Positions 12,228 through 27,298 of a stretch of DNA of 64,000 nucleotides are shown piece after piece. A program made the position numbers and the translations under genes. Each line of letters opens with the position of its first letter. The first letter of the stretch is position 1. Location of the stretch: NCBI GenBank assembly GCA_035353995.1, contig DAOQAL010000001.1:70867-134866 (forward strand). Reading direction: 5' to 3'. The notes beneath the pieces were generated by a model. It made no database searches and had not been told where the DNA came from. It saw only the letters and a program-made list of their open reading frames with translations. This stretch comes from Minisyncoccota bacterium. Lineage in GTDB: Bacteria; Patescibacteriota; Minisyncoccia; Phycocordibacterales; UBA9973.

Positions 12228-14618
12228 ATGGAAATAATTAGAAAAAATAATTTAATAAAGAAAATATTAATACCATTTATTGCTTTGGCTATTTTCTTGA
12301 TGCCTATTAGCCCAAGTTTGAAAATCAATAATGGACATCTGGCAACAAAAATTACTGTAAATAGAGCTTATGCTGAGAGTATAGAAACTGCCACAAAAGA
12401 AATAGGAGAGACGAGTGCAAGTTTTAAAATAATTCTTTTAAACACAATAAATTTATCGGTATATAATACCCCATATAATGTAATAATAACTCTTTATCAG
12501 GGGAAAAGTGACGGAACAACTGAAAAAAATTATATAGAGACACAAAATTTTCCTTTTGAAGTTAACACTGAAAGACAAGAATTTGACGCAGTGTTTAAAA
12601 AACTAAACCCTGGTACTAGTTACTATTTTACAGCTACAGTATATCATACTATATCGGGTGACTCATCAATAAAAATTAGAGATTTTGATACCACGGGGAA
12701 TGGAGGTAGTGGCTTAAGCACTCAAAAAGATGCCTCCGAACTTGTAAATATTGATAATCAAGAATTGAACTTGGAATGTACTATTTGGGATGGCTGGGAA
12801 GGCATAGGAGGTTGCATAGCTAATTTATTTTATATGGTTTGGCAAGTTTCTGAATGGATTGCTAATTTAGCAGGTGGTTTTCTTGATTTTTTTGTTTACT
12901 ATTCAACAAATAGCAGTTCTTACGTTAGTGGTTTTATAACAGAGGGCTGGGGAGCAATACGAGATATTGCTAATATTTTCTTTATTGTTGCTTTATTGTA
13001 TGTTGCTATAAAAACAATATTAAGTTTAGGGGGGCAAGACACAAAAAAATTGATTGGATATATCGTTATTATGGCATTACTTATTAATTTCAGTTTATTT
13101 TTCACACGAGTAATTGTTGATGGATCAAATATTCTGGCGAAGGTATTTTACAACAATATAACACCAAAGAATAAAGACGGAAAAGTAATAACAGGAGATG
13201 AAGGAGAAAAATCTATTACAGTTGGATTAGTTGATAAATTTAATCCAGCAAGTCTTGTAACAAATTCGGTTTATCAAAGTGAAGGTATGACTCTAGGAAA
13301 GTTTATTTTTATAGTTCTCTTACTTACAGCAATTACTCTTTCTATGGCATATATGTTCTTTACGGTTGCAATTGTTTTTGTAAGCAGAACTGTAATGCTG
13401 TGGATTTCTATGATTTTTTCTCCGATTGCTTTTGCATCATACACCTTGCCTTTTAACATACCCGGAATGGGTCATAAGGATTGGTGGGATCAACTATTAA
13501 AAAATGCATTCCTAGCTCCAATTTTTGTATTTTTCTTATATATAATAGTGATGTTTACCAATTTCTTAAAAGAAATTACTTATGATCCAACCAATGATTC
13601 TTTTTTGGGAAGTTTAATGCATATAGTAATTCCTTTTATAATTCTCTTTATGTTGCTGATGAAGGCCAAAGAGATGGCAGTAAAATTATCTGGAGAAATG
13701 GGTAAGGCAATTACAAAAGGAGCCACTATGTTAGGAGGTGTTGCATTAGGCGCAGCTGCTGGCAGTGCAGCTTTTGCAATGCGTGGCACTTTGGGAAGAG
13801 TCGGAAATGCTCTTGGTAATGCGGAGTGGACTAAAAAAACTGGCAAATTTGGAAGAGGTATGCAAAACATTGGACACTCATTAGGTAAAGGAAGTTTTGA
13901 TGTAAGAGGAATAAAGGTTGCTGGAAAGAGCTTGGCAAGCACTGGTATTCCAGTTGGAACAACAAGTGGGACTGGAGGGTATGAAAAGATACGTGCCGAC
14001 AAGATAGAAAAGAGACAAAAGAGAGCAAAAGAACTTGAGGTTGGAGAAAATAGCGGAATGAAACAAGAACTAAACAAAACCGAAGCAGACCTACAGGGTC
14101 TCTTGGTCACGAACGCAAAAGAAATCGAAGATATCGACAAATTAATTGACAAGAAGAAACAAGAAGCCGCTGATGCAGAGAGGAAAATGAAAGGTCTTCC
14201 ACCTGGACAGGAACACGAAGATGCTCAAGCAGCCTTAAGAGCAGCAAACGATGAGGTACAAAATGCTAAAGACAGAAAAAAGAACTTCCGAGAAGGAAGA
14301 GCTCATACGGATCTCGATGGCACAGTACATGACTACGAGACATCAGCAGTCTTAAAAGACAAGAATGGAAATACTATACATAAAAAAGACGCAAATGGGA
14401 ACATAGAGTTGGACGCAAACGGAAGACCAATAGCTATGGGTATTGATGTGCTGGAAAAGCAACAAAAGACACAAGCACAGGGCATCAAGACCGAAAACGT
14501 AATAAGGAGAACCAAATATGCTAAGGCTAAAGGACACTGGTATAATGGTAAAGGAAGTAGAGAAGCAGCTCATAAGATAATAATGGAGACAAAATTAGAT
14601 AGTGGTACTAAAACATAA
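12228..14618 (+). CDS. VirB6/TrbL/ConG-like polytopic membrane protein with N-terminal Fn3-like ectodomain and long charged/Gly-rich C-terminal tail
   Basis: Signal/TM at the N-terminus; Fn3-like NPGTSYYFTATVYH; at least 6 hydrophobic helices between residues about 180-520; Gly-rich then KE-rich coiled-coil-like tail. Confidence 0.6.
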   Translation: MEIIRKNNLIKKILIPFIALAIFLMPISPSLKINNGHLATKITVNRAYAESIETATKEIGETSASFKIILLNTINLSVYNTPYNVIITLYQGKSDGTTEKNYIETQNFPFEVNTERQEFDAVFKKLNPGTSYYFTATVYHTISGDSSIKIRDFDTTGNGGSGLSTQKDASELVNIDNQELNLECTIWDGWEGIGGCIANLFYMVWQVSEWIANLAGGFLDFFVYYSTNSSSYVSGFITEGWGAIRDIANIFFIVALLYVAIKTILSLGGQDTKKLIGYIVIMALLINFSLFFTRVIVDGSNILAKVFYNNITPKNKDGKVITGDEGEKSITVGLVDKFNPASLVTNSVYQSEGMTLGKFIFIVLLLTAITLSMAYMFFTVAIVFVSRTVMLWISMIFSPIAFASYTLPFNIPGMGHKDWWDQLLKNAFLAPIFVFFLYIIVMFTNFLKEITYDPTNDSFLGSLMHIVIPFIILFMLLMKAKEMAVKLSGEMGKAITKGATMLGGVALGAAAGSAAFAMRGTLGRVGNALGNAEWTKKTGKFGRGMQNIGHSLGKGSFDVRGIKVAGKSLASTGIPVGTTSGTGGYEKIRADKIEKRQKRAKELEVGENSGMKQELNKTEADLQGLLVTNAKEIEDIDKLIDKKKQEAADAERKMKGLPPGQEHEDAQAALRAANDEVQNAKDRKKNFREGRAHTDLDGTVHDYETSAVLKDKNGNTIHKKDANGNIELDANGRPIAMGIDVLEKQQKTQAQGIKTENVIRRTKYAKAKGHWYNGKGSREAAHKIIMETKLDSGTKT

Positions 14619-14620
14619 AT

Positions 14621-15118
14621 ATGACCGAGAAATTAAAACAGACAATTAAAGAACAAATGGTAATTATGCCTAAGGAATCACAAGAAGTGGTAAATAATTT
14701 TGATTGGGTAAAAATTTCCGAGGAAATTGGCAAAAAATATCTATTAAGTGAAGAAGAAATTAATATTTTACAAGCGGAGATAGCAACAGTACTGGTATGT
14801 GCCGAAGATCAAGATTATCTTACTCAAGATATAGAAAACGAGGTTGGTACAAGCAAGACTGAAGCAGAAAAAATAGCAAGTGAAGTTTTAGAAAAAATTT
14901 TTAAGCCACTAATTGAGAATTTATCTAAAAAAATAAAATTGGAATTAAAAGATCGTCCGATTAATTGGCAACAAAATTTAGATTTTATTCTTTCGGGGGG
15001 AGACTATACTGCTTTTATAAGAAAACCAATAAAAGAAGAAGACAATGTTGCTCCACAAGGAAATACTTTTTCAAACTATTCTGATTTAGATGATTTAAAA
15101 AGTAAATTTACAATATAG
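14621..15118 (+). CDS. Soluble hypothetical protein, paralogous to the next gene
   Basis: 165 aa with no TM. Shares a roughly 55-aa motif with 15135-15848 (FDW...KKY.LSEEEINILQAEIATVLVCA vs VDW...KKGYSFEQLEDLEIETELLLCG). Confidence 0.5.
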   Translation: MTEKLKQTIKEQMVIMPKESQEVVNNFDWVKISEEIGKKYLLSEEEINILQAEIATVLVCAEDQDYLTQDIENEVGTSKTEAEKIASEVLEKIFKPLIENLSKKIKLELKDRPINWQQNLDFILSGGDYTAFIRKPIKEEDNVAPQGNTFSNYSDLDDLKSKFTI

Positions 15119-15134
15119 TGTATAATAAAATTAT

Positions 15135-15848
15135 ATGGATAAACCGATAGATTTATTACAAATAAAAATAGAGAGAGCTAAAGAGTCTTTACCAAAAGAA
15201 ACATTAAAGGCTATTAATTCTGTCGACTGGAGGGCTTTCATTCTTGCCCTACGAGAAAAAAAGGGGTACAGCTTTGAACAATTAGAGGATTTAGAGATTG
15301 AAACAGAACTTTTACTTTGTGGTCTTTTATCAATTGAAAATTATCCAAAAGAAATAGAGGAAAGATTAAAAATTCCAAAACCACAAGTTGATTTATTAAT
15401 TAATGAAATGAATGAATCAGTATTTAAAAAAATTAGAGAAGAATTAATAAAAAATACAGAAAAAGAAGAATTGTTTGTTAGAAAAGAAGAAAAAATAGAA
15501 CAAAAACAAGTAATACAAACAGGAATAGATCCAACAATAAATAAAAGCGAGTCGAATATACTAAATAAAGCGGGAATAAGTATAATTGAAAGAGCAGAAG
15601 AGATTGCCCCACCTTCTAATACAGAAGTAAAAAAGGAAAACCCAATCGAAAAGCCAGTAGAAAAGCCAGTGGAATCAATTCCGTCTCAAAAATTGGCTGG
15701 TTCATTTCAAATTCCAATGACAAAAACTGAATATTCATTAAACAATAAACAGAATGTACAAAAAAATTTAACAGCAGAAAAAGAACAAACAGAAAAAATA
15801 AAACTTTCTAAAATAGATCCATACAGATTAGACCCAAATGCTGAATAA
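15135..15848 (+). CDS. Soluble hypothetical protein, paralogous to the previous gene
   Basis: 237 aa. N-terminal domain related to 14621-15118; C-terminal low-complexity K/E/P-rich region (PIEKPVEKPVESIP). Confidence 0.5.
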   Translation: MDKPIDLLQIKIERAKESLPKETLKAINSVDWRAFILALREKKGYSFEQLEDLEIETELLLCGLLSIENYPKEIEERLKIPKPQVDLLINEMNESVFKKIREELIKNTEKEELFVRKEEKIEQKQVIQTGIDPTINKSESNILNKAGISIIERAEEIAPPSNTEVKKENPIEKPVEKPVESIPSQKLAGSFQIPMTKTEYSLNNKQNVQKNLTAEKEQTEKIKLSKIDPYRLDPNAE

Positions 15849-15878
15849 AAAAGGAAAGATAAAATAAAAATCAAAAAA

Positions 15879-16301
15879 ATGCAATTTAAGGTACCACAAT
15901 TTTTAGATATAGAAGATAAAATTTTTGGACCATTTACTTTCAGCCAATTTGTATATTTGGCTGGTGGAGCAGGGTTATGTTTTGTGCTATATAAATTATT
16001 AGGTTTTTTACTTGGTTTTATTCCAATACTAGCAGTTGCAGCATTTGCAGTAGCATTAACTTTTTACAAACCAAATGGCAAACCTTTCATAAATACAATA
16101 GAAGCTGGACTAAAATACATGACACAAAATAAATTATATATATGGAAAAGAAGAAAACAAAAAATCACTACAACAAATACAACAGAAACACAAAAGAAAG
16201 ATGATATCATAAACAATAGAAATACAAGATTAACAAATAGTAAGTTACAAGATTTAGCATGGAGTCTCGATGTATTAGATTCCAAAAAAGAAGATAAATA
16301 A
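15879..16301 (+). CDS. VirB3/ConD-like small two-TM protein
   Basis: 140 aa with two adjacent hydrophobic helices (FVYLAGGAGLCFVLYKLLGFLLGFIPILAVAAFAVALTFY). Sits immediately upstream of the VirB4-like ATPase, as in Gram-positive T4SS. Confidence 0.5.
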   Translation: MQFKVPQFLDIEDKIFGPFTFSQFVYLAGGAGLCFVLYKLLGFLLGFIPILAVAAFAVALTFYKPNGKPFINTIEAGLKYMTQNKLYIWKRRKQKITTTNTTETQKKDDIINNRNTRLTNSKLQDLAWSLDVLDSKKEDK

Positions 16302-16302
16302 A

Positions 16303-16938
16303 ATGGCATTAAAAGCAAAAGCAACTCAAGACTTTGTTCCGATAAAAGAGGTTCGAGATGGAATCATCATTTTAAAAGATGGTGGGTTGAGAGCTATCAT
16401 ATTAGCGAACTCTGTAAACCTTTCACTAAAATCAGCAGAAGAACAAAGAGCAACAATTATGCAATTTCAAAATTTTTTAAATACACTCGATTTTCCAATA
16501 CAAATTTCTGTTCAATCAAGAAGACTTGATATAAGACCTTATCTTTTATTGTTGGAAAATAGAATAAAAGTCCAAAATGAACCATTGTTAAAATTACAAA
16601 CAAAAGAATATATGGGGTTTATAAAAGATTTTACCGATTCTGTAAATATTATGACAAAAACATTTTTTATAGTAGTACCATATACACAAACTACAATAAG
16701 GGCTGATTCTGGTATATTTAAAGGATTATTCCAAACAAAAAATAAAGAAATGATAAAAAAAGAAGCCGAAATTGATTTCGAAGAAAAAAGATCACAATTG
16801 GAACAAAGAGTCAGTGTTATAGAGCAAGGTCTTTCACGTTGTGGCGTTAAGGCAGTACAATTAGAAACAGATCAAGTTGTAGAAGCATTTTATAAAGTAT
16901 TTAATCCAGGAGAACTTGAGGGAAAAATAGAAATTTAG
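16303..16938 (+). CDS. N-terminal segment of a split VirB4/ConE-like protein
   Basis: 211 aa with no TM. Same reading frame as the following ATPase ORF, separated only by TAG-AAG-ATT-ATG. Combined length of 826 aa matches full-length ConE/VirB4. Confidence 0.55.
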   Translation: MALKAKATQDFVPIKEVRDGIIILKDGGLRAIILANSVNLSLKSAEEQRATIMQFQNFLNTLDFPIQISVQSRRLDIRPYLLLLENRIKVQNEPLLKLQTKEYMGFIKDFTDSVNIMTKTFFIVVPYTQTTIRADSGIFKGLFQTKNKEMIKKEAEIDFEEKRSQLEQRVSVIEQGLSRCGVKAVQLETDQVVEAFYKVFNPGELEGKIEI

Positions 16939-16944
16939 AAGATT

Positions 16945-18792
16945 ATGTCAATATTTGATTCATTTTTTAATACAAAAAAGAAAAGCAATGAAAACCAAAC
17001 ACAAGTTGGAGCAAATCCTTCTGTTTTGGCAGTACTGCCAGAAGAAATATATGAGTCTGCAAAACTTGAATTGCAAGATGTCATTGCGCCTTCAGCATTA
17101 AGGATTGAGCCAAAATCAATTAACTTAGGAGATAAAATAGCAAGAACATTTTTCATAATTTCTTTTCCAAGATTTTTATCTGATAACTGGTTTTCACCAA
17201 TAATAAACCTAGATAAGGTTTTTGATGTTTCTATTTTTGTTCACCCAATAGATACATCTTTAGCATTAAGACAATTTCAGAAAAAAGTAGCTGAAGTACA
17301 AAGTCAAATAAGTGTCAGAGAAGCAAAAGGGATGGTTAGAGATCCAATGTTAGACACAGCACATGAAGACTTAGAAAGTCTAAGAAATAATTTGATACAA
17401 GCACAAGAAAAAATGTTTGATGTTGGTATATATATAACAATATATGCAGATAATGAACTAGAACTTTTTAAAATAGAAAATGAAATAAAATCTATACTTG
17501 AATCAAAATTAATTTATATAAAACCAGCTCTTTTCCAACAAAATGAAGGATTTAAGAGCGTTATACCAACAGGAACTGATCTTTTAGGCATACATCAAAA
17601 ACTAAATTCTGAGCCTCTTTCTAGTATTTTTCCTTTCATATCTTTCGACCTTACTTCCACTAAAGGAATTTTATATGGTGTTAACAGACACAATTCAAGT
17701 TTAGTAATATTTGATAGATTTTCATTGGAAAATTACAACTCTGTAACTTTTGCAAAATCTGGTTCTGGAAAATCTTATGCAACAAAATTAGAAATATTAA
17801 GATCATTGATGTTTGATGTAGATGTAATAGTTATAGACCCTGAAAGGGAATATGAATACTTAACTGAAGTAGTAGGTGGAAGATATTTTAATATTTCTCT
17901 TTCATCTGATCACCACATAAACCCTTTTGATCTTCCAATACCAAGAGAAGATGAGACAGCAGAGGACGTTCTACGTTCAAATATAATAAACTTAGTTGGA
18001 TTATTCAGACTAATGCTTGGAGGATTAACACCAGAAGAAGATTCTCTTGTTGATAGAGCAATTTCAGAAACATATGCAATGAAAGATATAACCCCAGATT
18101 CTGATTTTTCTAATATTGAACCACCTCTTCTTTCAGATTTTGAAATGATTCTTGCTGGTATGGATGGAAGTGAGTCTGTAATGCAAAGATTGGTAAAATA
18201 TACAAAAGGATCTTGGTCCACATTCTTAAATAAACCATCAAATGTTGATATTAATAAAAAATTCGTAGTATTTTCTGTCCGTGATATGGAAGATGAATTA
18301 AAACCAGTAGCTATGTATATAGTAATGCACTATATTTGGACAGCAGTAAGAAAAAATTTGAAGAAACGATTACTTGTAGTTGATGAGGCTTGGTGGATGA
18401 TGAAATCTGAAGATACTGCTTCTTTCTTGTATTCTATGGCAAAAAGAGGAAGAAAATACTATCTTGGACTTTCAACTATAACACAAGATGCTGCCGACTT
18501 TATGAAGTCTACTTATGGTGTACCAATAATAACTAACTCCTCAATACAAATACTTTTAAAACAGTCACCAACAACCATAGATGTGTTGCAAAAAACATTT
18601 AACCTTACAGATGAAGAAAAATACTTACTTTTGGAATCAGGAGTAGGGGAAGGTATATTCTTTGCGGGAATGAAACACGTTGCAATAAAAATAATAGCTT
18701 CTTACACAGAAGATCAGATTATAACATCAGACCCGTCACAAATATTGTCGATTAAAAAAGAAAAGGAAGAAATTGAGAAAACAAATGAATAG
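16945..18792 (+). CDS. virB4: VirB4/TrbE/ConE-family type IV secretion ATPase
   Basis: Walker A FAKSGSGKSYATK, Walker B LLVVDEAWWMM, and a conserved pre-Walker region (ARTFFIISFPRFLSDNWF...VSIFVHPID). Confidence 0.85.
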   Translation: MSIFDSFFNTKKKSNENQTQVGANPSVLAVLPEEIYESAKLELQDVIAPSALRIEPKSINLGDKIARTFFIISFPRFLSDNWFSPIINLDKVFDVSIFVHPIDTSLALRQFQKKVAEVQSQISVREAKGMVRDPMLDTAHEDLESLRNNLIQAQEKMFDVGIYITIYADNELELFKIENEIKSILESKLIYIKPALFQQNEGFKSVIPTGTDLLGIHQKLNSEPLSSIFPFISFDLTSTKGILYGVNRHNSSLVIFDRFSLENYNSVTFAKSGSGKSYATKLEILRSLMFDVDVIVIDPEREYEYLTEVVGGRYFNISLSSDHHINPFDLPIPREDETAEDVLRSNIINLVGLFRLMLGGLTPEEDSLVDRAISETYAMKDITPDSDFSNIEPPLLSDFEMILAGMDGSESVMQRLVKYTKGSWSTFLNKPSNVDINKKFVVFSVRDMEDELKPVAMYIVMHYIWTAVRKNLKKRLLVVDEAWWMMKSEDTASFLYSMAKRGRKYYLGLSTITQDAADFMKSTYGVPIITNSSIQILLKQSPTTIDVLQKTFNLTDEEKYLLLESGVGEGIFFAGMKHVAIKIIASYTEDQIITSDPSQILSIKKEKEEIEKTNE

Positions 18793-18837
18793 TTTTCAAC
18801 CTGGCATCTATTACAAAATAAATGATATAATAAAAGT

Positions 18838-19803
18838 ATGTTTAAAAAGGGTTTAATTATATTTTTTACGTTAATTTGTTTATTTTTTGGATCACAAGTT
18901 AATGCACAAGTAAAAAGTGGTAATATCGTACTTAGTATAAGTCCCCAATACCCTAAAGCTGGAGAAGAAGTTCAAGCTTCTGTTTCAACATATTCGACAG
19001 ATTTAAATAATTCTAGAATTTCTTGGATAGTTAATGGAACAACAAAACTTGAAGGAGTTGGTAAAAAAACTTTTTCTTTTAGAATGGAAAATTCTGATTT
19101 TCAAACAGTTCTTGAAGTAAAAATTGAAACGCTTGATGGTTCTACAATAAATAAACAAATTACGATATCATCAACTAATGTTGATATGCTTTGGGAAGCG
19201 TATAACACATATACTCCTCCGTTTTATAAGGGAAAAACGTTGGCCACAACAGAAGGAATGATAAAAGTTGTGGCTTTTCCTAATACAACTAATTTAATTG
19301 GTTTTAATTATAAATGGGAAATGGATAATAAAAGCAAACAAGATTCTTCTGGATATGGAAGAAATTATTTTATATATAAAAATAGTTTTTTAGAAGATAG
19401 TAATACTATAGGAGTAAATGTTTCAGATATTTTTGGAAATAGTATAGGAGAAGGCACAACTACAATAAAACCAGGCAGTCCTATAATAAATTTTTATAGG
19501 AAAGACAGGAATCTTGGAATTAAATGGGAAAATATTTTAGAAAATGGATTTTCAATTAATAGAGAAGACGGTGACACAATTATAGTTGAACCATATTTTC
19601 TTTACCCGAAAGATTTTAATTCTGCAGATATATCTTGGGATTGGTTGATTAATGGAGAAAAAGTTCAAAACCAGAATCCTAAAAATTCTCTTTCAGTAAA
19701 ATTAGCAAACGAGGAATCAGGAAATGCAATAATAAAAGTTATGATTAGTAATACTAAAACACTTTTTGAAAGTGTTGAAAAACAATTAAATGTCAATTTC
19801 TAA
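18838..19803 (+). CDS. Secreted protein (321 aa), probable beta-sandwich repeats
   Basis: Signal peptide (LIIFFTLICLFFGSQVNA). No catalytic motifs. Lies in-operon between the VirB4-like gene and the hydrolase. Confidence 0.55.
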   Translation: MFKKGLIIFFTLICLFFGSQVNAQVKSGNIVLSISPQYPKAGEEVQASVSTYSTDLNNSRISWIVNGTTKLEGVGKKTFSFRMENSDFQTVLEVKIETLDGSTINKQITISSTNVDMLWEAYNTYTPPFYKGKTLATTEGMIKVVAFPNTTNLIGFNYKWEMDNKSKQDSSGYGRNYFIYKNSFLEDSNTIGVNVSDIFGNSIGEGTTTIKPGSPIINFYRKDRNLGIKWENILENGFSINREDGDTIIVEPYFLYPKDFNSADISWDWLINGEKVQNQNPKNSLSVKLANEESGNAIIKVMISNTKTLFESVEKQLNVNF

Positions 19804-21070
19804 ATCAAAAAAAATAATTATTTTTTTTCTGCTTATAATATTTTGTGGCAGTATTATTTTACCAGCTAGTGTTCTTGCAGTAGATCAAACAATATCAATT
19901 CAATGTTATTCAATAAACCAAAATGGGACTACGAAAAAATGGTCTCTTGGTTTTAAAATAAGTACTACAAATGTTGCAAATGGAACGAAAATTTATGATT
20001 ATTTATATGAAGATGGTATCAACTTAACAGAAGGAAACAAAATTTCTACTATCAAAGATGATTACGCAGAGTATCTTACTGGACAAATACTAGACTCAGA
20101 AACAAAATACACAGTAACAGCGACAGTAGTAGGCACGCCAAAGCTAACTACTTCTGTAAGCATTACAACACCTAAAGATGGAGAACAAGCAACTTCTTGT
20201 ACACCTTCAAACCCAGAAACTTCCCAAACAATCAAAAATACCATAAACACAGACAAAGAAACAAACAAAGAAACAGAAACAACATATACACTTCTTGCGC
20301 CATTGCCTGGATTAGAGGGTACAATTGATACAAAAATAAGTGCTGAAAATCCTTGCCCATTTGGAAACTACTTAAATATTATTATAAAACTATTTTTGGG
20401 AGTCTGTGCTGTCCTGGCTGTAGTCATGATTGTGATTGGTGGTATAGAATACATGACTAGTGATTTAGTTTCATCCAAAGAGTCTGGTAAAAAAATGATA
20501 ACTAATGCCATATTGGGTCTTCTACTCGGGCTCGGGGCATACGTTATATTGTCTGAACTAAACCCAGACTTGCTCAAAGTGTGCTTAAATAGTTTACCAG
20601 AAGTATCAATGGTTGCAGATGACAATGTTCCACAATCTCCAATTAATGGTAAATACTGCACTAATACATATGGAACAAATGGCGGATATACTGCAGGAGC
20701 AGATTGGTCTGCTATTGCTGGGAAAGCATCCACTTTACCAAGTGGAGTAAAAACTAATAACCCAGAGTGTACAAAAGTTGGAGAAAAAAATTGCACAAGT
20801 TTGCGTGGATTAAATCTCAGTACAATAAAAACTATTCAGTCAAAATGCACTTCTTGCGGAACAATAACAATAACTGGTGGAACTGAATGTTGGTTACATG
20901 GTGGATCAAAACAGAAAACAACACACCACATAAAAAGTCCAACCATAGACTTACGTCTCGAAACAAAATTGGATTCTTATATAAAATCAGGAACAAAAAA
21001 TGGATCCTGGTATAAAAAGGATGGAATTTTGTATTTATTAGAATCAAAACATTGGCACGTAGGAAATTAA
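19790..21070 (+). CDS. Secreted/membrane protein combining a VirB2/TrbC-like two-helix hairpin with a C-terminal peptidase-M15-like (VanY/L,D-peptidase) cell-wall hydrolase domain
   Basis: Signal peptide. Mid-protein TM1 (LFLGVCAVLAVVMIVIGGIEYM), short charged loop, then TM2 (ILGLLLGLGAYVILS). C-terminus has THHIKSPTIDL (matching the SxHxxGxAxD pattern) and ESKHWHV (matching ExWH), as in M15 peptidases. 8 Cys in the C-terminal domain. Confidence 0.6.
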   Translation: MSISKSKKIIIFFLLIIFCGSIILPASVLAVDQTISIQCYSINQNGTTKKWSLGFKISTTNVANGTKIYDYLYEDGINLTEGNKISTIKDDYAEYLTGQILDSETKYTVTATVVGTPKLTTSVSITTPKDGEQATSCTPSNPETSQTIKNTINTDKETNKETETTYTLLAPLPGLEGTIDTKISAENPCPFGNYLNIIIKLFLGVCAVLAVVMIVIGGIEYMTSDLVSSKESGKKMITNAILGLLLGLGAYVILSELNPDLLKVCLNSLPEVSMVADDNVPQSPINGKYCTNTYGTNGGYTAGADWSAIAGKASTLPSGVKTNNPECTKVGEKNCTSLRGLNLSTIKTIQSKCTSCGTITITGGTECWLHGGSKQKTTHHIKSPTIDLRLETKLDSYIKSGTKNGSWYKKDGILYLLESKHWHVGN

Positions 21071-21074
21071 AAAT

Positions 21075-22418
21075 ATGTCAAAAAGAAAAATAATAACAAT
21101 ATTAGTCACAATAATAGCAGTGTTTTTAGTTACTTGGACACTACTAAGTTTTTATAAATCATCAAAAAATACTACTGGAGAAAATACAACAGGAACAAAT
21201 TTTCTTTCTGAATTTTTCCCATTTGGAAAAAATAAAACAAACACAACAGAAAATAATGGGACACCTACAGATATCTCAGGTTATACAACGTCAGAAGATG
21301 GAACATTAGTAGAAAAATTAACAAAAGTTTCAAGTATGCCAGTGGCTGGCTATGGTGTTTTTACAAAAGAAAGATATAAAGAGATAGAAGTACCTGTTAA
21401 TAATACAGAAAATATTATTGAAAATTCCAGCACAGAAGAAAGTTCACAAATCCCAACCCCTCCACAAACAGAATTTATACCAATGATAAGATATGTAGAA
21501 AGAGCTACAGGAAATATTTTTCAAACTTACGCAGATAAAATAGAAGAGAGGAAATTTACAACAACAGTAATTCCACAAATATATGAATCATATTTTGGAG
21601 ACGAAGGAAACTCTGTAGTGATGAGATATCTAAAAGATGACAACAAAACAATAGAAACATATATTGGAAAATTACCAGAACAAATATTAGGTGGAGATAC
21701 TTTAAATAATGGAGACATATCAGGATCTTTTTTGCCAGAAAATATTACAGATATAAGTGTTTCACCTGATGCACTTTCTGTATTTTATGTTTTTAATAGT
21801 GGCAACAATGCAATCGGTTCTATTGCCAAAACTTCCAACAACACAAGAAATCAAATTTTTAGTTCTCCTTTTACAGAATGGTTATCATTTTGGCCAAATG
21901 ACAGAATGATTACAATTACAACAAAACCTTCTTATAATGTAACTGGTTATATGTATTCGATCGATCCTAATACAAAGAAAATGACAAAAATACTCAGTGA
22001 TATAAATGGGCTTACAACACTTACAAGTCCAAGCGGAAAGATTATATTGTATTCTGGTAATGATCTTTCATTGCGAATATATAATTTAGATACAAGAGAA
22101 TCAACTTCAACAGGTATAAAAACTTTGCCTGAAAAATGTACTTGGAGTAAAACAAATACTATATTGTATTGTTCTGTGCCAAAATATATTGATGGAATAA
22201 AATATCCAGATACATGGTATATGGGGGAAGTATCATTTTCCGATGAAATATGGAAAATAAATATAGAAAATGGAACTACAACATTGCTTGCAGATCCTAT
22301 TTCTTTCTCAAAAGGTGAAGAAATTGATGGTATAAAACTATCTTTAGATGAAAAAGAAAATTATTTACTCTTAATAAATAAGAAAGATTCCTATCTTTGG
22401 GAACTTGTTCTCTATTAG
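21075..22418 (+). CDS. Signal-anchored protein with TolB/PD40-like beta-propeller repeats; last gene of the operon
   Basis: N-terminal TM (IITILVTIIAVFLVTWTLLSFY). Repeated PD40-like strands (SPDALSVFYVFNSGNNAIGSI, TSPSGKIILYSGN). Confidence 0.6.
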   Translation: MSKRKIITILVTIIAVFLVTWTLLSFYKSSKNTTGENTTGTNFLSEFFPFGKNKTNTTENNGTPTDISGYTTSEDGTLVEKLTKVSSMPVAGYGVFTKERYKEIEVPVNNTENIIENSSTEESSQIPTPPQTEFIPMIRYVERATGNIFQTYADKIEERKFTTTVIPQIYESYFGDEGNSVVMRYLKDDNKTIETYIGKLPEQILGGDTLNNGDISGSFLPENITDISVSPDALSVFYVFNSGNNAIGSIAKTSNNTRNQIFSSPFTEWLSFWPNDRMITITTKPSYNVTGYMYSIDPNTKKMTKILSDINGLTTLTSPSGKIILYSGNDLSLRIYNLDTRESTSTGIKTLPEKCTWSKTNTILYCSVPKYIDGIKYPDTWYMGEVSFSDEIWKINIENGTTTLLADPISFSKGEEIDGIKLSLDEKENYLLLINKKDSYLWELVLY

Positions 22419-22435: not shown

Positions 22436-22930
22436 TTATAGATTTCCTATATATTTAATTACAACTCTACGAGAAAGTCCTTCTCCTGTTGATTCTGTTT
22501 TTAAATCAGTAGCCTCAGCTAAAAATTCATGAACAATTCTTCTTTCAAAAGCTGTCATTGGATCAACTTCTATATTTGATTTAAAATATCTAGCGCGTTC
22601 AGCCATCATATGTGCAATAGCATGTATATTTTCAATTCTTTTCTTTTGAAAACCATTAATATCAACTAATATTGCTGGATAGCTCATCTCTTTTTGTTCA
22701 GTATTTTTATCATCGGTGACATTACTTGCTTCAACTATCTTTTTAACTAAATGATTTAAAGCAAAAAGAGCCTCTCCGCCATGATTAATGAAGAAATGAG
22801 GTTGATTCACCTCTACGCTAAACCAAGTTGTTTTTGACCCATTTTCTTCTGAAATTGTAATATCTTTTACTGGAACAGTAGTTTTTTCTATTAATTCCTT
22901 TATTAAATTTTGAATATCTGTATTGTTCAT
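22436..22930 (-). CDS. jag: Jag/KhpB-like KH+R3H RNA-binding protein
   Basis: 164 aa with a C-terminal R3H-like region (FERRIVHEFLAE...GEGLSRRVVI). Conserved position downstream of yidC. Confidence 0.75.
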   Translation of the reverse strand: MNNTDIQNLIKELIEKTTVPVKDITISEENGSKTTWFSVEVNQPHFFINHGGEALFALNHLVKKIVEASNVTDDKNTEQKEMSYPAILVDINGFQKKRIENIHAIAHMMAERARYFKSNIEVDPMTAFERRIVHEFLAEATDLKTESTGEGLSRRVVIKYIGNL

Positions 22931-22931
22931 A

Positions 22932-23657
22932 TTATTGTTTAGAAATTGGTGTTAATTTCCTTTTCTTATTTGAATAAAGTTGTTGACCTATTGCAAATAA
23001 ATTATTTGTAACCCAATACAATGCAACTGCGCCAGATATACTATAAGCGATAAATGCAACTATAATTGGAAAAACATATTTCATTTGCACATTCATACTT
23101 TTTGCAAAACTATCTTGAAAAGAGCTAGCTCCGCTTTGTGTACTTGGTTTTGGCATAAAATATGCTTGAAAAAACTGAGTAATACCAGCAAGTATTGCTA
23201 AAATCAAGCTCTTGCTTCCAAGATCTAAAATTCCCAAAAAGTTCATATTAATATTTTGTGGTACTGGAGTAAAGGAATATAAATAACTACTATCAAATTT
23301 CAAACCCTTCAAAAATACATAATACAAAGCAAAAATAATTGGTATCTGTATTAAAACCAAAAAACAACCAGAAAATGGATTTGTTTTATGTTTTTTATAA
23401 AGTTCTAATGTTTGTTGTGCTTGTTCTTCTTTGCTTGCTTTACTGTTTTTTATTTTTTGTAATTCTGGATTAAGCAAATTCATTTTTGCTTGGTTATCAA
23501 TAGAACGCTGAGAAAGAGGGAATAGAAAAGTCTTTACAATAAGAGTTAATATTATAACAGCTACACCAACGTCACCCCCAGGAACAACTGAGACAATAAA
23601 AGCCAAAATGTTAACTAATGGCTTGTATAAAGCAACATCCCAAATATGAGTTATCAT
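22932..23657 (-). CDS. yidC: YidC/Oxa1-type membrane protein insertase (short form)
   Basis: 241 aa. Conserved region NPFSGCFLVLIQIPIIFALYYV, five TM helices. Synteny rnpA-yidD-yidC-jag. Confidence 0.85.
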   Translation of the reverse strand: MITHIWDVALYKPLVNILAFIVSVVPGGDVGVAVIILTLIVKTFLFPLSQRSIDNQAKMNLLNPELQKIKNSKASKEEQAQQTLELYKKHKTNPFSGCFLVLIQIPIIFALYYVFLKGLKFDSSYLYSFTPVPQNINMNFLGILDLGSKSLILAILAGITQFFQAYFMPKPSTQSGASSFQDSFAKSMNVQMKYVFPIIVAFIAYSISGAVALYWVTNNLFAIGQQLYSNKKRKLTPISKQ

Positions 23658-23731
23658 TACCTTATCTTATATTAAAAAATTAAAAAAATCTACCTTAAAA
23701 GTAAGAATAGAATAAAAATAAAAAAGAAACC

Positions 23732-23983
23732 TTATTTTAATGGGTCAAAATGATTTTTTTGCCAAGGATGACATCGCAAAATACGTAAGACCCCAAGATA
23801 AATTCCTTTTAAGACTCCATATTTTTGTATAGCCTCTATTGTATAGTTAGAACAAGATGGGTAAAAAACACAAACAGGTTTTTTAACTAATCCTATCTGT
23901 TTTAAGATACCAGTATCAAGAGAAAGTGTTTTTTGATAGAAAATAATTAAGAAAATTATTATATTTTCAATCTTTTTTTTCAT
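23732..23983 (-). CDS. yidD: Membrane protein insertion efficiency factor YidD
   Basis: 83 aa with the CVFYPSCSNY motif characteristic of YidD. Confidence 0.8.
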   Translation of the reverse strand: MKKKIENIIIFLIIFYQKTLSLDTGILKQIGLVKKPVCVFYPSCSNYTIEAIQKYGVLKGIYLGVLRILRCHPWQKNHFDPLK

Positions 23984-23984
23984 T

Positions 23985-24353
23985 TTAAATACGTAGCTTG
24001 TTTAAAATAACTAAAATCTCTTTATCTATTTGAGCAATAGAGTCTTGTCTTTCTTTTTTATTTCTTTTTTTCCCAAATATAGCCATACTTTTAGACCCAA
24101 AAATAAAGGCACCACAAAAACCACGGGGAAATCTATCTAAATATTTTTCTAAAATAGAATAACCTCTTCTTCTTAAAAGATTTCTATCTACCGCTTTTTT
24201 TGAAATATTTTTCGGAGTAATAAAAGATATTTTCTTTTCAATAGTATTATTAGTTATATATTTCAAGCTCAAAATGCCAGAAGATAAAAATCTTCCTTCT
24301 TTAAATATATTATCGATAGTTCTTTTATCAGCCCTATTCTTTTTAGGAAGCAT
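23985..24353 (-). CDS. rnpA: RNase P protein component
   Basis: 122 aa, basic, AVDRNLLRRRGYSIL motif. Immediately downstream of rpmH. Confidence 0.8.
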   Translation of the reverse strand: MLPKKNRADKRTIDNIFKEGRFLSSGILSLKYITNNTIEKKISFITPKNISKKAVDRNLLRRRGYSILEKYLDRFPRGFCGAFIFGSKSMAIFGKKRNKKERQDSIAQIDKEILVILNKLRI

Positions 24354-24354
24354 A

Positions 24355-24489
24355 TTAAACTGAAAGTTTCGCTCGTCCTTTTCTTCTTCTTCTTAAGAGA
24401 ACTTTCTGTCCGGTTTTTGACTTAGATCTAACTAAAAAACCGTGTGCCTTTGCTCTTTTTCTTTTATTCGGTTGATATGTTTGCGACAT
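24355..24489 (-). CDS. rpmH: 50S ribosomal protein L34
   Basis: Not in the ORF track (44 aa). Manual translation: [44 protein letters not shown]. Confidence 0.85.
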
Positions 24490-24506
24490 AATTGTAGTAT
24501 ATAACA

Positions 24507-24526
24507 TTATCAACAGTTTATCAACA
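24507..24526. promoter_or_regulatory. Two DnaA-box-like 9-mers (TTATCAACA x2) in the rpmH-dnaA spacer
   Basis: TTATCAACA at 24507-24515 and 24518-24526, each one mismatch from TTATCCACA. Lies within the 139-bp AT-rich divergent region upstream of dnaA. Confidence 0.5.
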
Positions 24527-24628
24527 TAGTTAGTAAGGTTTTTATTTCTCTAACTTTTTCACATTATAGTATAATGTTCAAACATCACTTTAATACTGTA
24601 TGTTTATTAATTAACGAAATCTCATTAA

Positions 24629-25972
24629 ATGGACACAAAACAACTTTGGAAAAATTGCTTGGCTGAAATAGAGGGGAGTGTTTCGAAAGCAAACTTTAGT
24701 ACTTGGTTTAAAAACACTTCTATATTAAAAGAAGACGCGGGTATTATTTATGTAGCAGTTCCTAACGAATTTGTAAGAGATTGGTTAAAAAATAAATATC
24801 ATAAATTAATAACTAAAACAATAGCAGACACTTATGAAAGTATGCGTGCTGTTGAATACGTTATTACAAGGACAGATGCTATAAAACAAGAATTACCAAG
24901 GACAAATGACTCTTTTATAAAGCAAGAATTACCACTAAAAGATCTTTATATTAACCCTGAAGATAATTTAAACCCAAGATATCAATTTAATTCTTTTATC
25001 GTTGGTTCATTCAACGAACTTGCTTATGCTGCCTCACAAGCGATTATTGAAAGTCCTGGAACGAAATATAATCCATTCTTTGTTTATGGAGCTACAGGGC
25101 TTGGAAAAACACACTTAATACAAGCTGTTGGAAATTCAATAAAAGAAAAATATCAGAATAAAAAAGTACATTACTTAACTTTAGAAAAGTTTGCTACAGA
25201 TTTTATTAATTCATTACAAAACAATAAAGCAAATTCTTTTAAGGAAAAATATCGTAAATATGATCTTTTAATCATAGACGATATACAATTCATAGGAAAG
25301 ATGGAAAAAATACAAGAAGAATTATTCCATACATTCAATACTTTCTATGAAAACAACAAACAAATAATATTTTCCTCAGATAAACACCCAAATTATATTC
25401 CAGAGCTAGCTGACAGATTAAAGTCTCGTTTTGCAGCTGGAATGATTGTAGATGTTACAGAACCAGAATATGAATCACGATTAGCTATATTAAAGGTAAA
25501 ATTACGTGAACAAAATATAGAACTTGGCCAAGAAATCATTGAATATGTTGCATCAAACATAAGAGGTAACATTCGTGAGCTTGAGGGTAGCTTAAATACG
25601 ATTATATGCCAATATCGCTTGAAAAATAGCACTCTTTCAATTTCTGAGGTCAAAACATTATTAAAAAATAATATGAAGCCTAAGAAAAATGTTTCAGTAA
25701 AGGATGTAGCAAAAATAGTAGGGGATTATTATAACTTAGAAGAAACTTCAATTTATGAAAAAACAAGAAGAAAAGAGATAGTGAAAGCAAGACAAATAGT
25801 AATGTTTTTATTAAGAGAAGACTTCAATGTTTCATATCCTTTAATTGGGCAAAAACTTGGCGGGAAAGATCACACTACGGTAATACATTCTTATTTGAAA
25901 ATTAAAAATGATTTAAAAAACGATCCACAGCTTTTACAAGAAATAGAACAAATAAGAATCATGTTTAAATAG
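24629..25972 (+). CDS. dnaA: Chromosomal replication initiator DnaA
   Basis: Walker A GATGLGKTHL, sensor motifs, and C-terminal DNA-binding domain (KDHTTVIHS). Confidence 0.95.
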   Translation: MDTKQLWKNCLAEIEGSVSKANFSTWFKNTSILKEDAGIIYVAVPNEFVRDWLKNKYHKLITKTIADTYESMRAVEYVITRTDAIKQELPRTNDSFIKQELPLKDLYINPEDNLNPRYQFNSFIVGSFNELAYAASQAIIESPGTKYNPFFVYGATGLGKTHLIQAVGNSIKEKYQNKKVHYLTLEKFATDFINSLQNNKANSFKEKYRKYDLLIIDDIQFIGKMEKIQEELFHTFNTFYENNKQIIFSSDKHPNYIPELADRLKSRFAAGMIVDVTEPEYESRLAILKVKLREQNIELGQEIIEYVASNIRGNIRELEGSLNTIICQYRLKNSTLSISEVKTLLKNNMKPKKNVSVKDVAKIVGDYYNLEETSIYEKTRRKEIVKARQIVMFLLREDFNVSYPLIGQKLGGKDHTTVIHSYLKIKNDLKNDPQLLQEIEQIRIMFK

Positions 25973-26196
25973 TTGTTGAAAAGCAGTTGAAATGGAAATG
26001 ATAACGAGAAATAAAAATGTTAATAAAAATTATTTTTTAAAAATTATTCAAAAGAAAAATAAAATACAAAAAATTATTAGACTTAGAAAAAAAATAATTA
26101 ATTAAAAATAGTTAACAGAATCAATATTAAAATAACTTATCCACTTATCCACACAACTAATAGTAATAATAAATTATATATATAATATATAAACAT
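25973..26196. promoter_or_regulatory. oriC-like AT-rich dnaA-dnaN spacer with tandem consensus DnaA boxes
   Basis: TTATCCACT at 26137-26145 and perfect TTATCCACA at 26145-26153. Flanked by very AT-rich stretches (candidate DNA unwinding element). Confidence 0.7.
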
Positions 26197-27294
26197 ATGA
26201 AAATAGAATGCAACAGTGAAAAAATAAAACAAGCAATTTCTCAAACTGAAAAAATAACAGGTAAGAATCTAACATTGCCTGTTTTGGCTTCAATACTTTT
26301 AATTGCTTCAGGAAAATCTCTTAAACTTCGATCTACAAATTTAAGTCTTGGTGTTGAAGTTGAAATACCATCAAAAGTTGAAAAAGAAGGTATTATGGCT
26401 GTTTCAGGATCTGTTTTATCTAGTATATTTTCTAATATTTCACAAAATGAACAAATAATTCTTGAAGAAGAGAATGGAAATTTATTAATTAAGACAAAAA
26501 AGAGTTTAATTAAATTAAAAGGACAACCTTGCGACGATTTCCCTACAATTCCAGTTGTTTCAGGTAAAACGTTCACAATAGAGTCAAAAAAATTTATTGA
26601 TGGTATAAAATCTGTTTATTACAGTTCTTCTGTTTCTGATATAAAACCAGAAATCTCAAGCGTATTTATATATTCAGATGATGATAATTTAGTTTTTGTT
26701 TCAACCGATTCATTCAGATTGGCTGAGAAAAAAATAAGGATAAAGGGCTTAGAGGAAATACCTGGAATTTTAATACCATTTAAAAACATTTCAGAAATTT
26801 TAAGAATTTTTGGTGATGTAAATGATGAAATAAAGATTTGTTTTAATAAAAATCAAATATCTTTTTCTTCATTAAATATATATCTTACATCAAGAGTTAT
26901 AAATGGCGTCTTTCCTGATTATCGTCAAATTATCCCTAAAGAATATAAAACAGAAGCAATTGTTCTCAAACAAGATTTATTAAATGCTCTTAAAATATCA
27001 AATATTTTTTCAGATAAATTTAATCAAGTTAATCTAAAAATAAAACCAAAAGAAAAAACATTTGAGTTGTCTTCATCTAATAATGATGTTGGAGAAAATA
27101 AAACACATTTAGACGGAGCTTTAACTGGGGAAAATGTAGAACTTGGTTTTAATTATAAATATTTTCTTGATTCTCTCCAATCAATAAATTCAGACAGTAT
27201 TTCTATTAAATTAAATCAAACAATTAAACCATTAGTTGTTTCTGGTGTTTCTGATAATTCATTTATTTATTTAATAATGCCAATGAATAGATAA
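26197..27294 (+). CDS. dnaN: DNA polymerase III beta sliding clamp
   Basis: 365 aa with three-domain clamp architecture. Position after dnaA. Confidence 0.9.
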   Translation: MKIECNSEKIKQAISQTEKITGKNLTLPVLASILLIASGKSLKLRSTNLSLGVEVEIPSKVEKEGIMAVSGSVLSSIFSNISQNEQIILEEENGNLLIKTKKSLIKLKGQPCDDFPTIPVVSGKTFTIESKKFIDGIKSVYYSSSVSDIKPEISSVFIYSDDDNLVFVSTDSFRLAEKKIRIKGLEEIPGILIPFKNISEILRIFGDVNDEIKICFNKNQISFSSLNIYLTSRVINGVFPDYRQIIPKEYKTEAIVLKQDLLNALKISNIFSDKFNQVNLKIKPKEKTFELSSSNNDVGENKTHLDGALTGENVELGFNYKYFLDSLQSINSDSISIKLNQTIKPLVVSGVSDNSFIYLIMPMNR

Positions 27295-27298
27295 TATT

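Follow-up and report, generated by a model that had tools for sequence, protein, structure and literature searches.

Does the only pilin gene of a chromosomal T4SS in an ultra-small Paceibacteria (Patescibacteria/CPR) bacterium also encode the enzyme that opens the cell wall for it? The question is raised by one ORF in the window (the whole 64-kb stretch of DNA analysed here), which the first-pass annotation had read as a VirB2/TrbC-like pilin hairpin fused to an M15-like cell-wall hydrolase domain. The ORF was recovered as annotated (Table 1), and its 426-aa product is 100% identical to the public entry 'pilin [Candidatus Paceibacterota bacterium]'. An annotation artefact or frameshift fusion was rejected, as hundreds of proteins and 78 species-level genomes show the same architecture; since the hairpin module and the C-terminal domain (C-domain) are kept in hundreds of proteins, the features of this protein are not due to chance. 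The signal peptide comprises an MSISKSKK n-region, a hydrophobic core and a probable cleavage site at ...ASVLA/VD, and the conserved pilin module runs from a TYTLLAPLPGL...NPCPFGNYLN lead-in through helix 1, a polar Lys-rich loop and helix 2 to NPDLL. The strings LFLGVCAV, THHIKS and ESKHWHV, the last two of which had been singled out in the first-pass annotation, begin at aa 201, 378 and 418, respectively.

Table 1. Features of the fusion gene and of the neighbouring T4SS genes (nt positions refer to the window)
Feature	Residues (aa)	Position (nt)	Strand	Basis
Modular pilin-hydrolase fusion gene	1-426 + stop codon	19790..21070	+	ORF list
Signal peptide	1-29	19790..19876	+	Hydropathy, sequence inspection; AlphaFold helix 6-23
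FN3-like beta-sandwich, N-terminal, predicted extracytoplasmic	34-126	19889..20167	+	
Disordered linker rich in Thr/Ser/Asn/Lys/Glu	127-164	20168..20281	+	pLDDT <50 at 139-160
Conserved pilin module	165-262	20282..20575	+	Pfam T4SS_pilin, AlphaFold hairpin, conservation
Pilin module helix 1	190-223	20357-20458	+	AlphaFold
Pilin module helix 2	227-257	20468-20560	+	AlphaFold
Inter-domain linker KVCLNSLPEVSM	263-274	20576..20611	+	pLDDT dips ~aa 271-280
LAS-like (Hedgehog/DD-peptidase fold) C-terminal domain, 152 aa	275-426	20612..21067	+	
Candidate metal/catalytic codons	E366; H370; H379; D387	20885; 20897; 20924; 20948	+	
Candidate metal/catalytic codons, continued	E418; H421; H423	21041; 21050; 21056	+	
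Polytopic membrane protein, VirB6-like candidate	796 aa	12228..14618	+	~8 hydrophobic segments
PrgI/VirB3-like protein		15879..16301	+	Pfam PrgI, 36.3 bits
TraC-like protein	211 aa	16303..16938	+	85% identical to L001 gene with precomputed PF26593 TraC-like match
VirB4-type ATPase		16945..18792	+	Pfam P-loop_TraG (86 bits), AAA_10, DUF87
Conserved exported protein, directly upstream	321 aa	18838..19803	+	ORF list
Conserved N-terminally anchored protein, directly downstream	447 aa	21075..22418	+	ORF list

The hairpin was examined for its relationship to VirB2-type pilins. Hydropathy analysis revealed hydrophobic stretches at aa 1-35 (signal-like), ~197-222 and ~238-257, and the loop between the latter two (aa 223-237, TSDLVSSKESGKKMI) is polar and carries three Lys, in agreement with the charged loop described from the sequence at the outset. 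AlphaFold modelled two long helices (pLDDT 90-96) folded into a hairpin. Reading the hydrophobic pair as one signal-anchor was rejected, given that AlphaFold and hydropathy both yield two helices. The Pfam T4SS_pilin model PF18895 matched aa 195-254 just above its gathering cut-off (27.2 versus 26.6 bits) and, at E<=1, 106 of the 108 homologues (best E 5.9e-11). The classical TrbC/VirB2 model PF04956 scored the query below its cut-off (11.4 versus 27.9 bits) and matched 89/108 homologues at E<=1 (best E 9.3e-07), and the NCBIfam Mbov_0395 pilin-like model matched the hairpin module below threshold. When an HMM of the hairpin was run against the six-frame translation of the window, this gene was the sole match (E 1.7e-42).

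A VirB2-type pilin is expected to carry a signal peptide and two hydrophobic helices with a short polar or basic loop between them, the combination found here with a predicted membrane topology, and to be encoded in a T4SS cluster with VirB3 and VirB4, as this protein is; the mature protein is also expected to be small, hardly more than the hairpin, whereas this one derives from 426 aa and has two extra folded domains. The gene is therefore best explained as the VirB2-type pilin, in a decorated form, of an oriC-proximal T4SS, which bears out the pilin assignment of the first-pass annotation. It shares with the Patescibacteria T4SS_pilin family PF18895 (Quinonero-Coronel et al. 2025; Wang et al. 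2023) the signal peptide, the two-helix hydrophobic hairpin with its short basic loop, the Pfam match above cut-off and a location next to VirB3/VirB4, close to dnaA, in a T4SS of monoderm (MPF-FATA-like) type. It differs in length (members of that family have ~100-150 aa), with the FN3-like domain inserted before the hairpin and the LAS-like domain appended after it, and it is a single pilin gene, whereas Saccharimonadia and Microgenomatia have been reported to carry arrays of 2-11 short pilins.

The cluster that houses the fusion gene adjoins dnaA, in agreement with the published layout of Patescibacteria T4SS loci (PMC12102498), and is ordered PrgI/VirB3, TraC-like, VirB4, 321-aa protein and fusion gene, the last two overlapping by 14 nt. 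The 796-aa membrane protein had no Pfam match, and its VirB6-like label is drawn solely from position and topology. Most of the 78 genome loci share the gene order, VirB4 being present in 56, the upstream 321-aa protein in 57, and the hairpin and the downstream 447-aa protein in 66 each; the remainder lie largely on truncated contigs. A domain scan of the T4SS cluster found no hydrolase domain other than the putative one of the fusion, and neither an SLT or CHAP domain nor a VirB1 HMM match was detected.

In orthologous loci the slot again carries this hairpin module (72-79% identical), joined to unrelated N- and C-terminal parts and flanked by VirB4 (88-94% identical), the upstream protein (46-60%, present in every variant locus) and the downstream protein (52-56%, regardless of C-domain type). 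The C-terminal position is filled in these variants by NlpC/P60 (36 bits), VanY (P0115; 36.3 bits, and E 2e-7 against 5hnm, a VanY structure), YkuD (46 bits) or, weakly, lysozyme-like domains. In some genomes the slot is occupied by a plain 143-aa pilin with no fused domain, so the fused hydrolase is not obligatory for the system. Stand-alone pilins of 114-161 aa are up to 76% identical to the hairpin module, and one of them, P0338, terminates at the position of the inter-domain linker (...NPQLLSVCLDKLK*). The central point, which the first-pass annotation had not made, is that the hairpin is the T4SS locus's own pilin, with a C-terminal enzyme head that is swappable or missing in orthologous loci. 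This interchange with known peptidoglycan-acting domains is the strongest functional evidence for the C-domain, and together with the fold it points to an enzyme. The modular pilin-hydrolase family is large and widespread (~1,600 clusters at 50% identity) and has no entry in Pfam, NCBIfam or PHROGs.

The C-domain had been called M15-like from two putative zinc-binding motifs, SxHxxGxAxD and ExWH, and had been described as Cys-rich. The high-confidence model adopts the Hedgehog/DD-peptidase fold, which includes the M15 enzymes, with Hedgehog signalling domains as its nearest structural neighbours. The secondary structure follows the order helix, strand (..TE.W), loop (H), strand (D), helix, strand (..E) and strand (HxH), which we take to be the order of the ShhN core. 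When aligned to Shh by hhalign, E366/H379/D387/E418/H421/H423 pair collinearly, at a non-significant P of ~0.2, with E127/H141/D148/E177/H181/H183; E127 is a calcium-binding residue of Shh, and E366 is the sole counterpart of the Hedgehog calcium site found in the C-domain. Zinc and catalytic roles have been described for the aligned Shh residues (PMC6027127). The hhalign comparisons were not significant, whether with ShhN alone or a 23-sequence Hedgehog alignment (both P ~0.2) or with the VanY domain of P0115, for which the alignment was spurious. Among these comparisons, only those with Shh were biologically coherent.

Conservation scored across alignments of 108 and of 31 sequences revealed C327, C335, T336, S337, E366, W368, H370, H379, D387, H421 and H423 to be invariant and E418 to be conserved in at least 90%. 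When the C-domain was shuffled with its composition preserved, 0.45% of the shuffles contained a relaxed H..D..E..HxH pattern. Relative to the zinc motif defined as H-x(6)-D plus H-x-H (PMC6027127), the H379-D387 spacing is x7, and H421-W-H423 is invariant. Of the two motifs proposed, E418-x2-H421 fits ExxH, with a spacing that varies in the family from 2 to ~11 residues, while no literal SxHxxGxAxD is present: the query reads T-T-H-H-I-K-S-P-T-I-D, and neither Gly nor Ala is conserved. The count of eight Cys was also too high: seven lie past the hairpin (265, 290, 327, 335, 353, 356 and 367), six of them in the folded domain, and those at 327, 335, 353 and 356 are conserved.

Sequence searches did not connect the C-domain with a peptidase family. 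Scans of the C-domain against Pfam, NCBIfam and PHROGs returned no match; M15 HMMs (VanY PF02557, Peptidase_M15_2/3/4 and others) matched neither the query nor any of the 108 homologues at E<=1, NCBIfam models gave none, and the Hedgehog model PF01085 likewise had no Pfam match in the query or the 108 homologues. The VanY-type variant P0115 served as the positive control for the M15 search and was matched. Against the PDB, phmmer with the C-domain returned nothing but a chance CHIPS match (E 0.96), the profile search (hmmsearch) returned nothing, and Foldseek found no match at E <1. A protein search with ShhN for bacterial Hh-like relatives gave animal Hedgehogs for all 120 matches listed. The M15-like reading is thus right at the level of the modelled fold, and membership of the M15 family has no support from sequence methods. 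Compared with the LAS metallopeptidases, taken here as M15 (S. albus DD-carboxypeptidase, VanX, VanY, LdcB and phage L-Ala-D-Glu peptidases), M74 MepA, the Hedgehog N-terminal domain and bacterial Hh-like M15A relatives, the C-domain has H-x7-D rather than H-x6-D, lacks the SxHxxGxAxD consensus and HMM-level similarity, and has an extra N-terminal sub-domain of ~70 residues with four conserved Cys. It is best explained as a divergent representative, not curated before, of the zinc-peptidase fold LAS (lysostaphin / D-Ala-D-Ala peptidase / Sonic hedgehog), in which H379, D387 and H423 are most likely the Zn2+ ligands and E418 the water activator.

A pilin whose tail domain has the fold of a zinc cell-wall peptidase, and whose relatives carry other wall-acting domains or none, suggests that the pilin itself may contain the wall-cutting function that is otherwise missing. 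We consider it probable that the decorated VirB2-type pilin, through its LAS zinc-peptidase head, gives the locus its VirB1-type wall-opening function. The protein would be exported by Sec and, after removal of the signal peptide, would form a two-helix hairpin in the membrane with the Lys-rich loop in the cytoplasm and both ends outside the cell, which would place the FN3-like domain and the 152-aa C-terminal domain on the extracytoplasmic side. There, H379, D387 and H423 would bind Zn2+ and E418 would activate water, with H421 and H370 assisting, and the peptide bond cleaved by the domain would lie in the stem or cross-link of peptidoglycan. The domain would in this way provide the VirB1-type opening otherwise lacking at the locus, tethered at the very site of machine or pilus assembly. 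A wall to be cut does exist, since PBP1a and an M23/LysM peptidase are encoded in the genome. In this account the architecture, the T4SS setting, the likeness in fold, the invariant residues and the exchange with known peptidoglycan-acting domains are observations, and metal binding, catalysis, substrate, topology and the choice between own and host wall are deductions. Like the monoderm VirB1-type hydrolases (PrgK of pCF10, TraG of pIP501, CwlT of ICEBs1 and TcpG), the protein has, by prediction, a membrane-tethered, extracytoplasmic and wall-degrading domain encoded in a T4SS cluster, and its catalytic domains are modular and interchangeable, with NlpC/P60 and lysozyme-like domains in orthologues. 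It differs from them in its anchor, a VirB2-like pilin hairpin instead of a single N-terminal TM helix, and in its domain, which is LAS/Hedgehog-like rather than SLT, CHAP, NlpC/P60 or M23 and shows no sequence homology to VirB1 profiles.

The target may instead be the wall of the host, although we regard this as rather unlikely. The fusion would then polymerise as a major or minor subunit, and since the hairpin termini would face outward, the filament would show FN3-like and hydrolase heads able to breach the host wall. Swaps of the C-domain would fit host wall chemistry, as in 'evolved' VgrG/PAAR or polymorphic-toxin effector domains. Such a role is in line with the hairpin being the sole VirB2-like sequence in the window and orthologous to a stand-alone pilin from the same slot, with the replacement of the N- and C-terminal parts even where the VirB4 proteins are 88-94% identical, and with the fast divergence of the exported neighbours (46-60% identity) against 85-94% for the cytoplasmic parts; in Southlakia, moreover, epibiotic growth requires both the T4SS and its pilins (PMC10633639). 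However, no pilus is known from Paceibacteria, and crowded packing is to be expected from the F- and T-pilus structures. No T4SS pilin is known to assemble when each of its ends bears a folded domain of 100-150 aa. VirB1-type hydrolases of Gram-positive conjugation systems likewise vary in domain make-up, so domain swapping is no proof of host targeting. Nor does an immunity-type gene co-vary with the C-domain; the 447-aa downstream gene was rejected as a cognate immunity protein because it is the same for every C-domain type. An analogy, and no more than that, can be drawn with 'evolved' or specialised effectors of contractile and other secretion systems, such as VgrG3 of the Vibrio cholerae T6SS with its peptidoglycan hydrolase at the C-terminus: in both cases a structural component of the machine ends in an exchangeable domain for wall degradation, predicted in the present one. 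The subunit here is a T4SS pilin rather than a T6SS spike, the locus shows no cognate immunity gene, and delivery of the fusion into another cell is hypothetical.

It is less probable still that the C-domain is a non-catalytic Hedgehog-like module, which would keep the LAS fold and perhaps a metal and act as a ligand- or wall-binding adhesin or a structural cap. Its closest structural neighbours are signalling domains whose own enzymatic role is disputed (PMC6027127), so a Hedgehog-like fold is no guarantee of catalysis; the motif departs from the canonical one in H-x7-D and in the variable loop from E to HxH, and no peptidase HMM matches. On the other hand, a very large family keeps the full LAS catalytic-type set invariant, with the general-base Glu and the first HxH His among its members, and the slot is otherwise occupied by bona fide enzymes. 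Such residues are usually lost in binding modules. Drosophila Hh, for instance, has lost D148, E177 and H183 (PMC6027127). Finally, we think it highly improbable that the fold itself is wrong and that the LAS likeness is a chance alpha/beta-sandwich match of a novel Cys-/His-rich domain, such as another metalloenzyme or a disulfide-stabilised receptor-binding domain.

The first-pass annotation had found the arrangement unfamiliar, and no description of a pilin-hydrolase fusion was found in the T4SS and Patescibacteria papers searched; in the supplements of PMC12102498 the names NLPC_P60, VanY, YkuD and T4SS_pilin do not occur. The modular pilin-hydrolase is thus apparently undescribed, and its C-domain extends the Hedgehog/DD-peptidase fold by a divergent branch. 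A large share of bacterial diversity belongs to Patescibacteria. For the saccharibacterium Southlakia epibionticum, the one member tested, the T4SS is essential for epibiotic growth (PMC10633639), and a recent survey concluded that most genomes with VirB2-like pilins have no VirB1 hydrolase and that pili may therefore be built without it (PMC12102498). The Paceibacteria locus suggests a different answer, in which the wall-cutting domain is covalently part of the pilin. The natural series of domain swaps on a constant scaffold (LAS-like, VanY, NlpC/P60, YkuD, lysozyme-like and none) offers a ready experimental system for deciding between the cell's own wall and the host's as the target. If the fusions assemble into pili, these would be the first enzyme-displaying T4SS filaments. 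One conceivable, though not likely, form is a Paceibacteria T4SS filament of 'evolved pilins', each with an adhesin-like head and a swappable wall-degrading head, acting as an enzyme-studded drill that opens the host wall, a delivery principle that to our knowledge is unprecedented among T4SSs. Such a drill, if real, would account both for the need for a T4SS in the epibiotic lifestyle and for the swapping of heads between near-identical loci.

The gene, whose first 14 nt are shared with the upstream ORF, encodes a 426-aa protein. An identical public entry, annotated as 'pilin', comes from a metagenome-assembled genome of Candidatus Paceibacterota; the G+C content is ~30% across the window. 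By hydropathy, the protein begins with a signal-like segment, and two further hydrophobic stretches (~aa 197-222 and ~238-257) flank a polar loop with three lysines. The full-length AlphaFold model (mean pLDDT 81), built from 113 aligned sequences, divides the protein into the parts listed in the table. Pfam T4SS_pilin matched aa 195-254 (27.2 bits, cut-off 26.6) and 106 of 108 homologues at E<=1; the classical TrbC/VirB2 model gave only a sub-threshold hit on the protein. The first-pass annotation had proposed a VirB2/TrbC-like pilin hairpin fused to an M15-like hydrolase; all the sequence strings it quoted were found in the protein, and the fusion of a pilin hairpin with a hydrolase-like domain is upheld. 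Searching the six-frame translation of the window with a hairpin HMM detected no further pilin.

Sequence searches with the C-terminal domain (aa 275-426, C-domain) against Pfam, NCBIfam, PHROGs and the PDB (phmmer and profile) returned no matches. Modelled alone (pLDDT 96.1, pTM 0.90), it consists of a helix, a strand ending in GTE.W, a loop bearing H370 and H379, a strand bearing D387, a helix, a hairpin insert, a strand ending in E418 and the strand H421-W-H423, which we take to be the element order of the ShhN core. Alignment with ShhN by hhalign (ShhN sequence checked against PDB 6e1h) was non-significant (P ~0.2), and its single best alignment was collinear, pairing E366 with mouse Shh E127, a calcium ligand, and H379, D387, E418, H421 and H423 with H141, D148, E177, H181 and H183, respectively. 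The zinc ligands of Shh are H141, D148 and H183, the general base is E177, and the family motif is H-x6-D plus H-x-H (PMC6027127). The C-domain differs from this motif in having H-x7-D, and its E-to-HxH loop ranges from 2 to ~11 residues within the family; a relaxed regular expression for the motif is present in 0.45% of C-domain shuffles. We read the C-domain as a divergent LAS-fold (lysostaphin/D-Ala-D-Ala peptidase/Sonic hedgehog) domain with an intact set of catalytic-type residues. The earlier interpretation is supported in part: the fusion and the M15-like fold stand, whereas a literal fit to the motif and M15 membership could not be demonstrated.

A profile built from 31 trimmed C-domain sequences matched 1,631 cluster representatives at E<=1e-3, of which 130 also reach E<=1e-30; the C-domain is a large, well-conserved family. 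Among the best 150 of the 1,631 matches, it lies C-terminal to a pilin hairpin wherever the upstream sequence suffices, the short matches being 5'-truncated fragments. In four homologues (P0011, P0021, P0043 and P0157) ~100 residues extend past the C-domain; in these and in P0049, the ~100 residues after the terminal HWH form a further beta-rich segment. Residues C327, C335, T336, S337, E366, W368, H370, H379, D387, H421 and H423 are invariant, and conservation is 90% or higher at E418, C353 and C356. The four conserved cysteines (C327, C335; C353, C356) fall within aa 327-356 (window ~20768-20857), the second pair having a variable C-x(1-3)-C spacing among homologues, and may be paired in two disulfides or bind a structural metal.

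The T4SS cluster containing the gene directly adjoins a Jag/YidC/DnaA/DnaN/PBP1a block, which follows the gene for the 447-aa protein and marks the replication origin. This position agrees with the published layout for Paceibacteria. The locus corresponds to the T4SS known from Patescibacteria, which is oriC-proximal and MPF-FATA-like and has VirB2-like pilins (PMC12102498, PMC12857230, PMC10633639). A polytopic 796-aa protein, without a match in a Pfam scan, is a likely candidate for a VirB6-like component of the channel, carrying a large additional domain. Two neighbouring N-terminally anchored ~800-aa proteins stand near the head of the cluster and are possible surface adhesins of the T4SS; the first had no match in a Pfam scan, and the second matched CARDB and FN3-like (Pur_ac_phosph_N) only. 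The flanking 321-aa and 447-aa proteins recur as partners of the pilin gene in almost every related locus and are candidates for pilus-associated or VirB5/VirB8-like roles. Elsewhere in the window are genes for a PilB/T2SSE-type ATPase and for a peptidase with LysM and M23 domains, so the genome also has machinery of a type IV pilus or T2SS and a wall endopeptidase encoded separately.

Features of the pilin fusion and its neighbourhood (nucleotide positions refer to the window)
Feature	Position	Strand	Remarks
LysM + M23 peptidase	1775-2818	-	
T4SS cluster	6379-22418	+	
~800-aa protein, first	7328-9796	+	
~800-aa protein, second	9798-12200	+	
796-aa protein	12228-14618	+	further upstream; ~8 hydrophobic segments
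PrgI/VirB3-like protein	15879-16301	+	upstream of pilin fusion
TraC-like protein	16303-16938	+	upstream of pilin fusion
VirB4 ATPase	16945-18792	+	upstream of pilin fusion
321-aa protein	18838-19803	+	exported; upstream of pilin fusion; no family assignment
Pilin fusion	19790-21070	+	from ORF list
Signal helix	aa 6-23		full-length AlphaFold model
Beta-sandwich	aa 34-126		full-length AlphaFold model
Disordered linker	aa 127-164		full-length AlphaFold model
Two long helices	aa 190-223, 227-257		full-length AlphaFold model, pLDDT 90-96
Compact C-terminal domain			full-length AlphaFold model, pLDDT >94
447-aa protein	21075-22418	+	anchored; downstream of pilin fusion; no family assignment
Jag/YidC/DnaA/DnaN/PBP1a block	22436-30082		
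PilB/T2SSE-type ATPase	33985-35682	-	

A minority of homologues carry a different C-terminal part: VanY in P0115 (36.3 bits; E 2e-7 to VanY structure 5hnm), NlpC/P60 in P0088 (36 bits), YkuD in P0119 (46 bits), a weak lysozyme-like signal in P0120 (SLT_3 E 0.008; C-type lysozyme E 0.23) and a part with no assigned domain in P0109. All four variant genes with contigs retrieved (P0088, P0115, P0119 and P0120) directly follow an orthologue of the 321-aa protein, and the longer contigs of P0088 and P0120 read PrgI, TraC-like, VirB4, ~320-aa protein, pilin fusion and ~380-470-aa protein, continuing into Jag, YidC, RnpA, DnaA, DnaN and PBP1. Their flanking genes are orthologues of the ones described here, with VirB4 88-94% and the TraC-like protein 85% identical, and the upstream exported and downstream anchored proteins 46-60% and 52-56% identical, respectively. 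All variants match the hairpin module (aa 165-262) at 72-79% identity, with unrelated N- and C-terminal parts. A hairpin-only search recovered stand-alone pilins of 114-161 aa (<=76% identity), of which P0338 (143 aa, L084 8001-8432) is a plain pilin in the same slot of another genome, 76% identical to the hairpin module and ending exactly where the linker to the C-domain starts. Because the hairpin module is conserved in the variants and a plain pilin can fill the same slot, the constant element of the locus is the pilin, to which a domain acting on peptidoglycan can be added at the C-terminus; the LAS-like domain is by far the commonest addition. P0338 and the YkuD-fused P0119 have nearly the same signal peptide, which indicates that the extra domains were gained or lost very recently.

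Scanning one genome per species for the sequence pattern yielded 78 loci, with record titles of Nomura-, Kaiser-, Yonath-, Zambryski-, Moran-, Azam- and Lloydbacteria, other Paceibacterota or Patescibacteria and unclassified bacteria, together with auto-labelled assemblies titled Saccharibacteria or Bdellovibrionales. The hairpin is directly upstream in 66 loci, VirB4 is present in 56 and DnaA lies downstream in 54, most loci that lack one of these being on truncated contigs; the oriC-type neighbourhood is kept in most of the species-level genomes. In L043, L059 and L075, loci of Kaiserbacteria and unclassified MAGs, the homologue of the 447-aa gene follows the 321-aa gene and precedes the pilin gene, and the gene order has therefore been rearranged in this lineage. 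Two 'Bdellovibrionales' MAG loci (L028 and L034) have the hairpin + C-domain gene with VirB4 absent within 6 kb; these could be Patescibacteria contigs binned in error, or the gene could be an additional copy that lies apart from the T4SS locus.

In the mechanism we propose, the pilin fusion would be exported by Sec and its signal peptide then cleaved, and the hairpin would insert into the membrane so that its basic loop faces the cytoplasm and both termini lie on the outer side, which would make the FN3-like and LAS-like domains extracytoplasmic. The LAS-like domain would bind zinc via H379, D387 and H423 and, using E418 as the base, would hydrolyse a peptide bond of the peptidoglycan. Like a VirB1-type protein, it would thereby make a local opening in the wall for the T4SS or pilus. 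Genes for PBP1a and an M23/LysM peptidase show that the genome makes a wall; the wall attacked may be the cell's own or that of a host. The recent domain swaps and the fast divergence of all exported components beside nearly invariant cytoplasmic ones point towards host interaction, but no immunity-like gene co-varies with the C-terminal domain, and Gram-positive VirB1 analogues are likewise modular. Comparing one operon (window 16303-22418) with four related loci (L001, L003, L004 and L005) revealed a sharp rate contrast between the cytoplasmic and the three exported proteins, which suggests that surface-exposed parts are under selection.

Membrane-tethered T4SS wall hydrolases, the functional class proposed for the pilin fusion, are already known from PrgK, TraG, CwlT and TcpG. 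Literature searches on T4SSs and Patescibacteria found no description of a hydrolase fused to the pilin hairpin itself, of a swappable or absent enzyme head in an orthologous slot, or of the commonest head as an uncurated divergent Hedgehog/DD-peptidase-fold family, and all three appear to be undescribed. In a published survey, VirB1 was absent from most VirB2-bearing genomes, and pilus biogenesis was inferred to be independent of VirB1 (PMC12102498); for Paceibacteria, the present locus offers an alternative explanation of this absence.
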